Origin: a virus
UHGV virus genome: UHGV-0245202
Direction: 5' to 3' (one strand)
Length of the DNA: 25,199 nt
Shown here: piece after piece, positions 6,665 to 11,503 of the stretch
Layout: the number at the start of each line of letters is the position of its first letter
Numbering within the stretch: position 1 is the first letter of the stretch
Translations under genes and position numbers: made by a program
Notes under the pieces: generated by a model
Database searches by the model: none
What the model saw: the letters and a program-made list of their open reading frames with translations, nothing else
Told to the model about the DNA's origin: nothing

Positions 6665-8638
6665 TCACCTCCATTTAAACCGAGGTGAATATTCACCGTT
6701 ATTGAATCTTCCTATACTTACCTGTATTGTCGCCGGAGAATCAGAAAGAACCTCGGTGCTATGCAATGATAGTATAAGTGATGATGATTCTATATCTCTA
6801 TCTATTTCGATCACATAACCATAATCTCGTTCTGGCTCTGTAAAATAAGCTATTGGGTTTCCGTTTGCTGCAATGGTAAATCTTCCACCAACAAATTTAC
6901 CCTTGAACATAACATGTATTTTTATCCGACTAACTCCCTTCGGTAAAACACAACCAGCATTTAATGATGCTGTAGAGTTTATATTGAAATCTTTCCTTAT
7001 CACTGTGTATGGAATTGCATATAAAGCTTCAGCAAAGCTTGATTGAGACTGATACTCTGTCGCAGCAATAGAGCTCCCCCCCATAATTCTAAATCCTCCA
7101 ACACCGGAGAACACACTATTAAAAGCATCCACAGCTTTCGTAAAGTTACCAATACAAACGGGTGTTTCTGCATCATTAATGAATTGTTCCCTTGAATACA
7201 ATGTCACACTGTTTATATATGTACTTTTATAACCACCAATATCATCAGGGCTTAAAAATCCATACCCATTGGAACCATCAGATACGCCATTAAATTCTGT
7301 ATAATAGCTACAAAATTCGTTAGATGATCTTGGAGATGTCTCAATCCATCCAAATCCAAAATTTCTCTCTGACTGAATATTGCTATAAGTACACCCACTA
7401 CTCCGCGTTATAAGGCCTGCGCCACTATAGCGCGTCGCTGAGTCTGGTGATGGGTCAAAATCACCATTGCGACCATTTGTGTGTGTACGTATACGTAAAA
7501 AACTAACAGAATTTACAGCCAAATCATCAGTTTCTCCTTGAGTAGGATAACCAATAACAACTCCGCGCCCATAGTTATCATGTGCAACTATTGTTCCAAA
7601 TGAACAGAACCAAGACTGATAAACTGATATGCCGACGACACGAGCATTTATGGCTGTAATATTGTCGCAATGTGACTCATTTGTAAAATATCTAAAATAA
7701 AATCCATTTGTCGCCTTATTATCACAATCAGAAATTATATTTGTAATTCTTACTGAGCTTACATCTTCAGTTGGTGTAACTCCAATTGGAGAGCGAGAGC
7801 ATCTAATAACAGCCTTTTTAATTGCAACATCCCCAATCCATTTAATGGTTGTAGCAAATCTATTACCTGCTCGCAGAGAATTTCCATATCCTCTCATATC
7901 CAAGCCATTTGGAGGCACAAACTCATCTGTAATTCCAATAACACCAGCTGGAAGGATTAAAGGTAGTTTATTATCAGATGCGAATTTAGCAGCACTGGTT
8001 AACTCATTAATTGAATCTTTTTCTCCATTTAAATTAACCCCCCACCATTTTAATAGAACTTCTCCATTGATATTTCGTTTCCACCGCCTCCCAATTGCGT
8101 CAATAAGTATTGTTCCTCCATTATCTTGAGATGTAGAATCATACTTATCAATTTCAAATATTCCATTTCCACCATCAAATATATTTCGCACACCATATAC
8201 ATAGCATCTATGCATATTCCCGCTATAATTTCTAATATCTTCGTAATTTGCTCCACCTATATATCCCAAACCGAAGCTTTGAGATAATTGAACTTTAAAT
8301 TGATCAGGTTCATACTTCAGCACATTCGGAAAATAAAACTGCTGAGCACCGTATGCATCATAAACAGCCATAGAATGGCCTTGCACAGTTACGAACTTGG
8401 CAATCTGTCCGTTATATACCGGGTAACCAGCAGCGTTAATGATGATTGGTTGCGAAACAGGAACGTGAGAGCCGTCTTCGTTCTCCACATAAACCTGAAT
8501 CTGGTTTTCAGGATTTACAGGGTCAGTGTCAATTTTACCGATATAAATTTTGCCATTGGCTACAGCTTTAAAAGAACGAGCCATAGTGAAGAGTTGAGAA
8601 GGCATGCTTACCACAACATTTGCGGTGATATCTGACAT
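6665..8638 (-). CDS. Tailspike protein (gp9 position); P22-type N-terminal head-binding domain with a divergent receptor-binding domain
   Basis: 657 aa from the ATG at 8636-8638 (GGAG 9 nt upstream); the ORF track start at 8686 adds 16 codons with no RBS. The first ~110 aa ([11 protein letters not shown]...[21 protein letters not shown]...[13 protein letters not shown]...[10 protein letters not shown]) match the P22 gp9 head-binding domain from memory; the remainder does not resemble the P22 endorhamnosidase domain and is AT-rich. Confidence 0.85.
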
Positions 8639-8663
8639 TTCATTGCTCCAGACGAATGATATG

Positions 8664-8686
8664 ATGCAATCACGATGTGATTGCAT
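8664..8686. promoter_or_regulatory. Perfect 23-bp palindrome, candidate operator (Mnt-type) between mnt and the tailspike
   Basis: ATGCAATCAC-GAT-GTGATTGCAT: 10-bp arms that are exact reverse complements around a 3-bp centre, in the 121-bp divergent gap between the tailspike ATG (8638) and the mnt ATG (8760). Confidence 0.4.
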
Positions 8687-8759
8687 ACCGAAATGGTACT
8701 ATTGAGTATTTATCCAGTAGGTTACGATGCCATTCCACCCAACTGGTGAGGCATCACGG

Positions 8760-9020
8760 ATGTACAGCAAATACGACGAGGCGCAGTTTCACTTGAGACT
8801 TCCGCATGAACTCCACGCGAAAATTAAGCAGCGTGCGAAGATGAATAACAGGTCGCTGAACTCAGAGATAATTGCAGCGATTGAAGAATCATTGGATAAA
8901 CAAAGCTCTGCATCAGTTTACATTGACGATGCAGAGCGTATGGCAGAACAACAATCGGATATGGTTAAGAAAATTGTCTTTGATACGCTCAAGAAGCTAT
9001 ATAAAAAAGACAGTAGCTAA
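8760..9020 (+). CDS. mnt: Mnt-like ribbon-helix-helix repressor (immI-type)
   Basis: 86 aa from the ATG at 8760 (GGTGAGG upstream); the ORF track start at 8727 adds 11 codons. N-terminal RHH beta-strand motif (FHLRLPHELHAKIKQRA...GRSLNSEII) and a C-terminal tail DAERMAEQQSDMVKKIVFDTLKKLYKK matching the P22 Mnt tetramerisation helix from memory; located at the P22 immI position and transcribed opposite to the late genes, as P22 mnt is. Confidence 0.8.
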   Translation: MYSKYDEAQFHLRLPHELHAKIKQRAKMNNRSLNSEIIAAIEESLDKQSSASVYIDDAERMAEQQSDMVKKIVFDTLKKLYKKDSS

Positions 9021-9040
9021 CCATCCGTTACGGAGGATTT

Positions 9041-9118
9041 ATGCAAAGAGATATGCTGAATATTGCGTTCTACATATTTGGTTTTTGCACGTTCCTGGTG
9101 TTTGCGAAGCTATTCTGA
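9041..9118 (+). CDS. Putative 25-aa hydrophobic small protein (MQRDMLNIAFYIFGFCTFLVFAKLF); unannotated small ORF
   Basis: ATG at 9041 preceded by GGAGG (9032-9036, 4-nt spacer); 25 codons ending TGA at 9116-9118; a short polar N-terminus followed by a ~20-residue hydrophobic stretch. Lies 21 bp after the mnt stop on the same strand, and its 3' end overlaps the convergent gp16 stop codon (9110-9112). Below the 60-aa cut-off of the ORF track. Could be chance. Confidence 0.25.
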   Translation: MQRDMLNIAFYIFGFCTFLVFAKLF

Positions 9119-11503
9119 CAACGCATCAGACTTGGCACCCTGAGTAAGGGCGTTAATGGCCTTTTGCGCCTGCTGCATGGCTTTCTCAAACGCTGTTGAT
9201 CCGCGTGGGGTGTTTGCCATTCGGAGCATTGCATTTCTGAATGGCTCGCTCTCATAGGCGCGCGTAAGAAGTCCGTAGCTTACCGCTGCGCCAGTTGTCG
9301 CAGGGTTCATTGCTGTCCCATATCCGATAATGAACGGGATGGTTTGCTGCCCTGTTGGTGTTGTTACTGCCGCTTTTGCAGCCTGCTGCGTGGATTGCAG
9401 GTAGTTTTTCAATCCTTTCAGATAAGCGGCTTCCTGACCTTTAAATGTGATGCCAGTCTGGTTTTGCAGGATGTTAAGCTGTCGAAGGAACTGGTCAGGG
9501 GAACCACCTGATTTCTCCATCGCCTTTCCAATGATGCCATTGCGCATTTGCGCCCTGCCAACACGACCAACTGAGTTATACAGCGTCTTAATTTCCGATT
9601 TGTTCTTGCTGAATAGCATGTTGTTGACAACTTCCGGCGTCAGGTCGCCTTTCATGAGAACATTCTTCAGCCTGGTATTCTTTAGTTTCGCCGCTTCGTC
9701 AGCGTAGACGGCATTGGCCTGCTGATATTTACGGAGAGTATCGTTGCCAAGATTCTGACCAATGGCACCATTGATATCGTCGGTCATTGCCTTGTAAACG
9801 CGCTGAATGGCAGCATCGGAACGGTTTGGTAACACTGGTCGCTCCCCCTTCACGTCCATTCTGAACTGGCTGCGCAGATCGCTTAATTGCTTCAAATCCA
9901 GATTTACCGGACCATCAGGACCAGCATTGCGAACAAGCTCATCACGATAGGACTGAAGTTTTGAAATAGTCTCGTTATCAGCAACCTTACCAAGCTTCTG
10001 CAGGTTAGATATTTCTGTATCAATCTGCTGAATTGCTCTTGCAGGCTGAATGTTTATTCCCGCCATAGCATTCTGAACCTGCTCAAGACGGTTCCCTGCA
10101 GCACGACGAATTCCTGATGTTTTCGCTTTAAGGCTGTCAATAACAACAGCTGGATCATACTCACCGAATTTATCAGCAAATCTCTGCACCAACTGGCTTC
10201 TCGCTTCCTGTTGCGTTGCTCTCATTCCGCTTGTGCCAGCCAGGGGGATATTTTCCGCTGTCGTCTGCGCCATTTTTCCGACGCGGGAAATGGGTTGTAA
10301 CAGGTCTGTGGTGTGCAGAGGAACTCCTTCACGTTCTGCAAATCTGATAGCCTGTTGCGCTTCTGGTGCTATCGAACCACGAACACCACGATAAGCAGCG
10401 CCTAATCCACGTCCGGCAGCGTTAATAGCACCGCCAGCCAGCACACCAACGCCTAAATCGGTGGCGAGTGCTTCCGCATCATCTTTCGCACTGTTTGCAG
10501 CAAGTGATCCAACTGCGTTTTCTGCGAGAAGGCGAGTTGCCCCCTGAGCAATTCGACCAGCAAGTGTTGGTGCCTGTGCTGCCGCTCTCTCAACGCCAGC
10601 AGGAGTGAGGTAAGGCAATGCTTCAGCAAATACCCTTCCCTCTGTCGTTTGTGGAGTCAGCGCGCCTTGCTGAAGGCCAAAGTCCTGCTCTAATCCCTGC
10701 GTTGTTACTCGTGGTGCTGGTTGATATGTACCATCGCCAATGCCGAGTTTACCGCCAGCCCAAGCCGCCGCGCTTGTTACAGCATCAGTGAGTTCAGCAG
10801 GTATGTTCGCTACGTTGATTCCTGCCTGTAGTAAGCCTCGCCCGGTTTCAGCAAGTCCATTACCAAGGTCAGACATTATTCCGCCTTGCTGCTGAACAGG
10901 TTTCGGTGCGACAGAACTTACGGGTTGAGGTGGCTGCTGACTGGCTGCCTGCTGCTCAATCTGAGCAAATGGATTATTTGGGTCTGACTGCACGCCTGAT
11001 GCCGATACTTGTTCGGATGACTGTGCTTCCAGTTGTGCAAACGGGTTGTTAGGGTCTTGCTGAGGATGTACCTTTGCAGAGGTGGCGCGCTGTTCGACTG
11101 TTGAGTCTGTCACCGGGTCACCCGCCCATTGAGCAAAGCGATCATCAACGTAACCGCGGCCTTCAGGTCCTGGCGTATATTCACCACGCTTTGCCTTCAT
11201 AACGTTGCCGGGACCGTCGTGATAAGCCTGAAGAGCGTCACGCCAGTTACCAAACTGCTGGTACATCTTTGCCAGATAGCGCGCGCCAGCGTCAGCCTGA
11301 TATTCGGGGTTTTGCATTTGCTCATCGGTATAACCCATATCACGCCATGTCCCAGGCATGACCTGAGTCAATCCTACAGCCCCGGCGGAGCTTACTGCGG
11401 CAGGGTTGTAAGAAGACTCCTTGGCACCCAGTGCAGTCATCAACCCTTCTGGCACACCGTAACGTGCGCCAGCCTGCTCTAACAAATCACGGTAATTAGC
11501 CAT
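9110..11503 (-). CDS. Ejection (DNA-transfer) protein at the gp16 position, with an N-terminal lytic transglycosylase (SLT) domain
   Basis: 797 aa; last gene of the gp7-gp20-gp16 ejection block by position. The N-terminal ~130 aa carry family-1 lytic transglycosylase motifs (GAKESSYNPAAVSSAGAVGLTQVMPGTW ... ALQAYHDGPGNV); this is followed by a Q/P-rich linker with a duplicated DPNNPFAQ(L/I)E motif and a long Ala/Gly-rich C-terminal region. Start codon abuts the upstream stop (TAA at 11504-11506, ATG at 11501-11503). Confidence 0.85.
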   Translation of the reverse strand: MANYRDLLEQAGARYGVPEGLMTALGAKESSYNPAAVSSAGAVGLTQVMPGTWRDMGYTDEQMQNPEYQADAGARYLAKMYQQFGNWRDALQAYHDGPGNVMKAKRGEYTPGPEGRGYVDDRFAQWAGDPVTDSTVEQRATSAKVHPQQDPNNPFAQLEAQSSEQVSASGVQSDPNNPFAQIEQQAASQQPPQPVSSVAPKPVQQQGGIMSDLGNGLAETGRGLLQAGINVANIPAELTDAVTSAAAWAGGKLGIGDGTYQPAPRVTTQGLEQDFGLQQGALTPQTTEGRVFAEALPYLTPAGVERAAAQAPTLAGRIAQGATRLLAENAVGSLAANSAKDDAEALATDLGVGVLAGGAINAAGRGLGAAYRGVRGSIAPEAQQAIRFAEREGVPLHTTDLLQPISRVGKMAQTTAENIPLAGTSGMRATQQEARSQLVQRFADKFGEYDPAVVIDSLKAKTSGIRRAAGNRLEQVQNAMAGINIQPARAIQQIDTEISNLQKLGKVADNETISKLQSYRDELVRNAGPDGPVNLDLKQLSDLRSQFRMDVKGERPVLPNRSDAAIQRVYKAMTDDINGAIGQNLGNDTLRKYQQANAVYADEAAKLKNTRLKNVLMKGDLTPEVVNNMLFSKNKSEIKTLYNSVGRVGRAQMRNGIIGKAMEKSGGSPDQFLRQLNILQNQTGITFKGQEAAYLKGLKNYLQSTQQAAKAAVTTPTGQQTIPFIIGYGTAMNPATTGAAVSYGLLTRAYESEPFRNAMLRMANTPRGSTAFEKAMQQAQKAINALTQGAKSDALSE

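Follow-up and report, generated by a model that had tools for sequence, protein, structure and literature searches.

Gene content between the gp16-type and tailspike genes

The stretch of DNA analyzed here (25,199 nucleotides, referred to below as the window) is a segment of an E. coli chromosome carrying a P22-like (Lederbergvirus) prophage at tRNA-Arg. Its genes follow each other in the order mlaA, yfdC, intS, gtrA/B/C-like, tailspike, mnt-like, gp16, gp20 and more late genes, and the features discussed below are collected in Table 1. The gp16-type gene is the final gene of the late operon ahead of the moron. The tailspike gene, the product of which begins with MSDITANVV and thereby matches gp9-type head-binding domains, is annotated as a tailspike in phages IME10 and Sf101 and in strain L65. 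An in-frame ATG further upstream, at 8686 (673-aa ORF), was rejected as the tailspike start: no SD precedes it, and homology places the start at 8638. The mnt start used here is also that given by PGAP in strain L65, which is 99.7% identical. As indicated by the preliminary description of this DNA, the gap from the tailspike ATG to the mnt ATG (8760) measures 121 bp.

Table 1. Features of the region between the late operon and the tailspike gene, in coordinates of the window.
Feature	Position	Strand	Description and basis
Tailspike gene (P22 gp9 homologue)	6665-8638	-	ATG 8638-8636; SD GGAG 8649-8646; ORF list
23-bp palindrome	8664-8686	-	Tailspike-sense stem-loop AUGCAAUCAC-AUC-GUGAUUGCAU, 26-48 nt before AUG
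Candidate Mnt operator	8684-8700		17-bp imperfect dyad CATACCGAAATGGTACT; register with P22 and phage L operators
Pmnt homologue	8702-8728	+	-35 TTGAGT 8702-8707; -10 TACGAT 8723-8728; alignment to P22 Pmnt
mnt-like gene, 86 aa	8760-9020	+	RHH domain and Mnt tetramerisation domain; SD GAGG 8748-8751
25-codon hydrophobic ORF	9041-9118	+	MQRDMLNIAFYIFGFCTFLVFAKLF; SD GGAGG 9030-9034; downstream of mnt
gp16-type DNA-transfer (ejection) protein gene	9110-11503	-	ORF list; annotated so in Sf101 and strain L65

This is a reduced immI ("ant moron"): it retains mnt but lacks arc, ant and sieA. Among the ORFs other than mnt lying between gp16 and the tailspike (8639-9110), none resembles Arc, Ant or SieA or has another Pfam match, and no ORF or domain corresponding to the arc, ant and sar found downstream of Pant in a complete P22 immI occurs in this interval. 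The ORF list and the Pfam searches thus agree with the preliminary description, which had recognized a minimal immI. It had also counted a single ORF of at least 60 aa between the two flanking genes; the absence of Arc-, antirepressor- and SieA-like ORFs holds, but the count does not, as a mechanical 91-aa ORF with a TTG start (8872-9147), devoid of any family match, overlaps mnt. In Sf101 no Ant is annotated beside mnt; all that is annotated is a Rha-like regulator, located near the lysis genes. A 571-bp query across the mnt region (8560-9130) is 97-98% identical in IME10 and Sf101, and the gap was found in 223 of 5,426 complete E. coli genomes. Morons reduced to mnt have already been described in ST64T, ST104 and Para1 (PMC2629481) and in phage L (PMC8022706). 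In P22-like prophages the "ant moron" changes fast, and the arrangement seen here is one of its known and common states.

Compared with the immI of P22 (mnt-arc-ant, between genes 16 and 9), the window has the same location, an mnt gene divergent from the tailspike side, the same two-domain Mnt architecture and the same register of Pmnt and operator. On the contrary, it lacks arc, ant, sar and sieA, and differs by the QFHLR recognition strand, the sequence of the operator, a degenerate Pant homologue and a 15-nt Pmnt spacer. The 25-codon ORF that follows mnt stands in place of orf59a and sieA of P22.

This small ORF, which is conserved and had been missed in the preliminary description, could be transcribed together with mnt. 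It and the gp16 stop overlap by 9 nt; it exhibits no internal stop in 46 distinct variants (one of which has a CTG start) and has no match in Pfam or PHROG. Sf6, a phage lacking mnt, contains it as well, in the interval between genes 13 and 14 and without annotation. Its core AFYIFGFCTFLVF is nearly invariant, third codon positions included, so that the constraint could lie at the nucleotide rather than the peptide level.

An Mnt-like repressor with its own candidate operator

The product of the mnt-like gene combines an N-terminal Arc domain of the ribbon-helix-helix (RHH) type (Pfam PF03869, E 7.7e-15) and a C-terminal tetramerisation domain (Repressor_Mnt, PF11423, E 8.9e-15), and matches the structures 1mnt (E 7.5e-19, residues 6-78) and 1qey (E 4.4e-8) of the PDB. 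The gene is located between the gp16 and gp9 homologues, diverges from the tailspike-directed unit and is preceded by a Pmnt homologue with a dyad directly 5' of its -35 box, which is the context of the Mnt family. Two earlier proposals, that the protein is an Mnt-like RHH repressor and that its N-terminal DNA-reading strand is not that of P22 Mnt, are consequently confirmed, the recognition beta-strand reading AQFHLRL here and PHFNFRM in P22. With a crude dN/dS of about 0.2 in the RHH domain and a stop in 1 of 92 alleles, mnt is under purifying selection and not decaying.

RefSeq phage records (e.g., Sf101 gp14) and PHROG 795 give homologues of Mnt the label "partition protein ATPase"; this looks like a propagated mis-annotation, because the protein is an 86-aa RHH repressor. 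The literature provided nothing usable on the contact residues of Mnt, and mnt is not discussed in the Sf101 paper. Upstream of the Mnt-like gene of the Klebsiella phage phiKp_30 (L191) lies ACTGTATATAAAAACAGT, which by eye fits the LexA-box pattern CTGT-N8-ACAG.

A record of P22 annotates the Mnt operator as adjoining the -35 box of Pmnt, in the form AGGTCCACCGTGGACCT-A-TTGAGA with mnt to the right. The window reads CATACCGAAATGGTACT-A-TTGAGT, so that a dyad ends 1 nt before the -35 box, and phage L and ST160 present TAAGACCACGGTGGTCTTA-TTGTGG in the same register. The dyad has the length, the centre and the -35 distance of the P22 operator, as well as CC/GG 3-4 bp from the centre, but is otherwise different in sequence and imperfect in the window, where its core (8686-8698) is TACCG-AAA-TGGTA with imperfect arms TACCG and TGGTA. 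A perfect dyad, TACCGAAACGGTA, is found in JEP4-type loci, and VSe13 has TACCTAAATGGTA. Whatever the leader, the dyad is kept at this position and length in every locus encoding this type of Mnt, and no part of the gap varies less than its core (2 of 13 columns variable among loci found via the Mnt protein). The dyad at 8684-8700 is thus probably the operator of the Mnt-like repressor. The preliminary description had anticipated an operator different from that of P22; a candidate of unlike sequence is indeed present in the gap.

Three repressor classes can accordingly be distinguished, each paired with its own 17-mer at the -35 box: HFNFR with AGGTCCACCGTGGACCT in P22, QFNLR with AAGACCACGGTGGTCTT in L and ST160, and QFHLR with CATACCGAAATGGTACT in the window class. 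Each dyad having the same length, centre and position, they would form three natural specificity pairs. All three carry CC/GG 3-4 bp on each side of the centre, which the conserved Arg presumably contacts. Neither the window nor the Sf101 genome contains a second copy of the dyad, so that the only visible target of the repressor is its own control region.

In this leader class, only 15 nt separate the -35 and -10 boxes of the Pmnt homologue (spacer 8708-8722), compared with 17 nt in P22 (TTGAGA-17-TATCAT), phage L, JEP4 and VSe13, and the predicted promoter may be weakened by it. A 2-bp deletion accounts for the difference, GGTTTTACGAT becoming GGTTACGAT; the same deletion also shortens the overlapping Pant homologue. 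In the window, the position homologous to P22 Pant reads ATGGCA-15-TAAATA by eye and is degenerate, and no sigma-70-like promoter toward the tailspike was detected in the gap at the scan threshold.

The perfect form of the 23-bp palindrome is private

The palindrome, ATGCAATCAC-GAT-GTGATTGCAT, consists of 10-bp arms and a 3-bp spacer and occurs once in the window (shuffled sequences expect 0). Its perfection, coordinates and distance of 26-48 bp to the tailspike were all correctly given in the preliminary description, the distance resting on the ATG placed at 8638-8636 by the ORF list and gp9 homology. Searches of the window and the complete Sf101 genome gave no second copy.

The perfection of this palindrome rests on one C at 8673 that was seen in no other sequence, strain L65 having a T. 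The perfect form is private to the window: it is present in 0 of the 223 complete E. coli genomes with the gap and in no other of 58 haplotypes drawn from viral and metagenome contigs, the window included. The majority haplotype, ATGCAACCATGATGTGATTGCAT, has two arm mismatches, and none of the complete E. coli genomes is identical to the window across 8640-8710. Among loci found via the Mnt protein, a restriction that keeps the set free of bias from searching by sequence pattern, 7 of 23 columns are variable in the palindrome vs 21 of 98 elsewhere in the gap, so that the palindrome is no better conserved than its surroundings.

The reading of the palindrome as an intrinsic terminator was rejected: downstream come CAUAUCAUUCG on the - strand and ACCGAAAUGG on the + strand, neither of which provides a U-run, and the terminator scan does not report it.

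The preliminary description had proposed the palindrome itself as the operator through which the Mnt-like repressor would control tailspike-directed transcription and/or its own gene. In favor of this model are a perfect dyad in a divergent gap, beside a dimeric/tetrameric RHH repressor with a recognition strand unlike that of P22 Mnt; moreover, the candidate operator overlaps the palindrome by 3 bp, and binding at the former could extend into the latter. The expected co-variation of palindrome and repressor across homologous loci was looked for and is lacking. In 80 IMG/VR loci, collected solely by their Mnt protein, P22-type leaders without the palindrome occur beside an Mnt 95-99% identical (L008, L062, L016, L017, L036 and L072; 99% in L008), and JEP4 and VSe13, which share the same N-terminal strand, similarly combine it with a P22-type leader and no such palindrome. 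Conversely, Sf6 carries homologues of the palindrome arms and no mnt. The palindrome is imperfect in all relatives examined, is conserved no better than its flanks and has undergone symmetric compensating changes without any change of the protein. It is also located one operator-length further out than the P22/L operator position (8684-8700), its half-sites are unlike those of the conserved dyad, and the scan revealed no tailspike-directed promoter in the gap. Being wrongly placed, absent beside near-identical repressors and imperfect in relatives, the palindrome is very unlikely to be the Mnt operator.

Hairpins in the leaders of tailspike genes

On the tailspike-sense strand, the palindrome forms a stem-loop in the minimum-free-energy fold. 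Other P22-like phages encode hairpins at the corresponding place. P22, L, JEP4, CUS-3, HK620 and epsilon34 present CCGUAGC-CAU-GCUGCGG at the same place of the leader, and in Sf6 a strong hairpin of 9+5 bp is found equally far from the tailspike AUG. A stable sense-strand hairpin at a conserved position is therefore found in three leader classes with different stems, designated type 1 (the class of the window), type 2 (P22 type) and Sf6 type. Shuffling gave p-values, for the tailspike sense, of 0.019 for the type-1 majority haplotype, 0.021 for P22 and 0.001 for Sf6. Kapi1, examined for a further leader class, has an arrangement unlike this locus, with an HNH gene after ant.

The leader of the window and that of P22-like gene 9 (bsq1 of CUS-3) are homologous in the ~15 nt that immediately precede the ATG (through GCTCCAGA), and each has a stem-loop with its centre 35-40 nt before the AUG. 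The stems are unrelated, AUGCAAUCA/UGAUUGCAU here vs CCGUAGC/GCUGCGG in the P22 type, and the window leader is closer to that of Sf6 than to the P22 type. Sf6, in which 164 bp separate gene 13 from the tailspike, shares GATGCAACC and ATTGCA with the window.

The motif GTGGCTACGGTGAATTTT is present twice in P22 (L005), at 2540-2560 after the ant terminator and at 2650-2670 upstream of gene 9. Either copy forms the junction to the neighbouring module in other phages (e.g., L074), which fits a role as a recombination "boundary".

Pairing is preferentially kept on the strand of the tailspike message. Stem cells are paired in 91% of cases in the tailspike sense vs 87% in the opposite sense for type 1, 92% vs 75% for type 2, and 94% vs 71% for the Sf6 type. 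Distinct G.U states number 11 in the tailspike sense vs 4 in the opposite one, a borderline difference (one-sided binomial p = 0.06). Two base pairs show a compensated path, namely pair 7 of type 1 (U-A / U.G / C-G) and pair 2 of type 2 (C-G / C..A / T-A). Covariation in type 1 is weak, with an RNAalifold covariation term of -0.18, and the pairing shuffle control is uninformative for this type because nearly all of its variation is one-sided. In most haplotypes, pair 10, which closes the loop, is mismatched in the tailspike sense. The G.U asymmetry would equally arise, as G.T, if the hairpin formed in single-stranded DNA of the tailspike-sense strand rather than in RNA. Taken as evidence for an RNA stem-loop, the pattern of variation is suggestive, not conclusive.

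Neither a gene-9 leader hairpin nor a published function for either hairpin was found in the literature, and Rfam returned no match better than E = 3.9 in 8400-9300. The hairpin can also be lost: in L205-type loci (IMG/VR), that of the P22 type was removed by a deletion, which implies that it is not essential. The deletion in L205 lies between the direct repeats GCCGCAG...GCCGCAG, which are the hairpin arms in the 720R6-type variant.

RNAalifold also pairs CAUAUCAUUC, in the stretch between the hairpin and the SD, with GCAAUGAAAUG around the start codon (8636-8663, tailspike-sense RNA). This A-U rich helix could occlude the AUG, but it may be an artefact of an alignment that ends at the AUG.

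Competing explanations for the palindrome

Several other readings of the palindrome were considered, among which that of a functionless inverted repeat deserves the most attention. The repeat could be a recombination or deletion scar joining the mnt control region to the tailspike leader, i.e., a "boundary sequence" junction in which the hairpin is incidental. Indeed, it spans a module junction: the outer right arm, TTGCAT, is mnt-side sequence also present in type-2 loci, and the left arm is part of the Sf6-related leader. Its variability, the weak covariation statistics and the loss of the hairpin in L205 point in the same direction, as does the annotation of this leader as boundary sequence bsq1 in CUS-3; nothing usable was found in the literature on the "boundary sequence" of HK620. 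Against this reading, a hairpin recurs equally far from the AUG in three leader classes with different stems, and variants preferentially keep the pairing of one strand, with full compensated paths at two pairs. We regard a scar as possible, though rather unlikely.

The palindrome might also belong to mnt transcription. A leader-specific mnt promoter on the + strand, with CTGACA at 8632-8637, a 17-nt spacer and AATGAT at 8655-8660, would start near 8667 and make the palindrome a 5'-terminal hairpin of the mnt mRNA or a regulatory element at the start site. CTGACA-17-AATGAT is the sole 9/12 consensus match near the gap on the + strand, the canonical Pmnt homologue suffers from its poor 15-nt spacer, and in the window the hairpin is as stable in the + sense as in the - sense. 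Nevertheless, the promoter scan yielded 2 sites where shuffles predict 2.1, the match is not conserved in P22-type leaders, and the + sense stem of the majority haplotype contains an internal C x A mismatch and is not formed in the minimum-free-energy fold. We rank this promoter behind Mnt binding at the palindrome, as very improbable. Finally, a perfect intergenic dyad could be the site of another dimeric protein, either a host factor or a different phage regulator. To our knowledge, it resembles neither the consensus sites of CRP, LexA, Fur and FNR nor the C2 operators of P22; no second copy exists in the window or the Sf101 genome, and the usual form is imperfect as DNA. This is the least probable of the readings, and we give it very little credence.

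A two-part explanation

The locus is a reduced immI that carries a candidate operator of its own and is fused to a tailspike leader containing a stem-loop. We favor an explanation in two parts, with a probability of roughly 0.55, in which the dyad is the Mnt operator and the palindrome is an RNA stem-loop of the tailspike leader rather than a protein operator. Under this explanation, the gap would join two separate things, the mnt control region and the tailspike leader. Mnt bound at the dyad would regulate its own small operon, formed by mnt and the 25-codon ORF, and might also impede polymerase entering the tailspike gene. The tailspike gene is placed at the end of the late operon. Its message comes from late read-through from gp16, for which the polymerase has to traverse the moron, about 470 nt that are untranslated and run antisense to mnt. 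For P22, the level of tailspike has been described as set by passage through the moron (summarised in PMC2629481). The stem-loop, at its distance from the AUG, leaves the SD free and would act at the RNA level; protection or insulation of the translation-initiation region of the tailspike, after the long untranslated moron, would be its most plausible role. The sequence, the positions, the distribution, the pattern of variation and the homology are established by the analysis; binding of Mnt to the dyad, the activity of the promoters and a function of the hairpin are all inferred here.

A broader scenario can be envisaged, which we hold to be quite unlikely: P22-like phages would keep a tailspike-leader stem-loop, close ahead of the ribosome-binding site, that sets tailspike dosage from the late transcript, its sequence having been replaced at least three times with structure and position preserved, and the Mnt retained after the loss of ant would have been repurposed at the dyad as a roadblock or regulator of read-through and of a small membrane-peptide gene.

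Significance

These observations change little for phage biology at large. They call for caution: what looks like a perfect palindrome in a single genome can turn out to be the private allele of an element whose action, if any, is exerted as RNA. The Mnt-like repressor and its candidate operator would represent a third natural repressor/operator pair, in register with those of P22 and L, and such a pair is convenient for studying the rules of recognition by ribbon-helix-helix proteins. A tailspike-leader hairpin conserved in position and replaced in sequence is, as far as we could find, undescribed in the literature, and it could bear on tailspike dosage after an untranslated moron.
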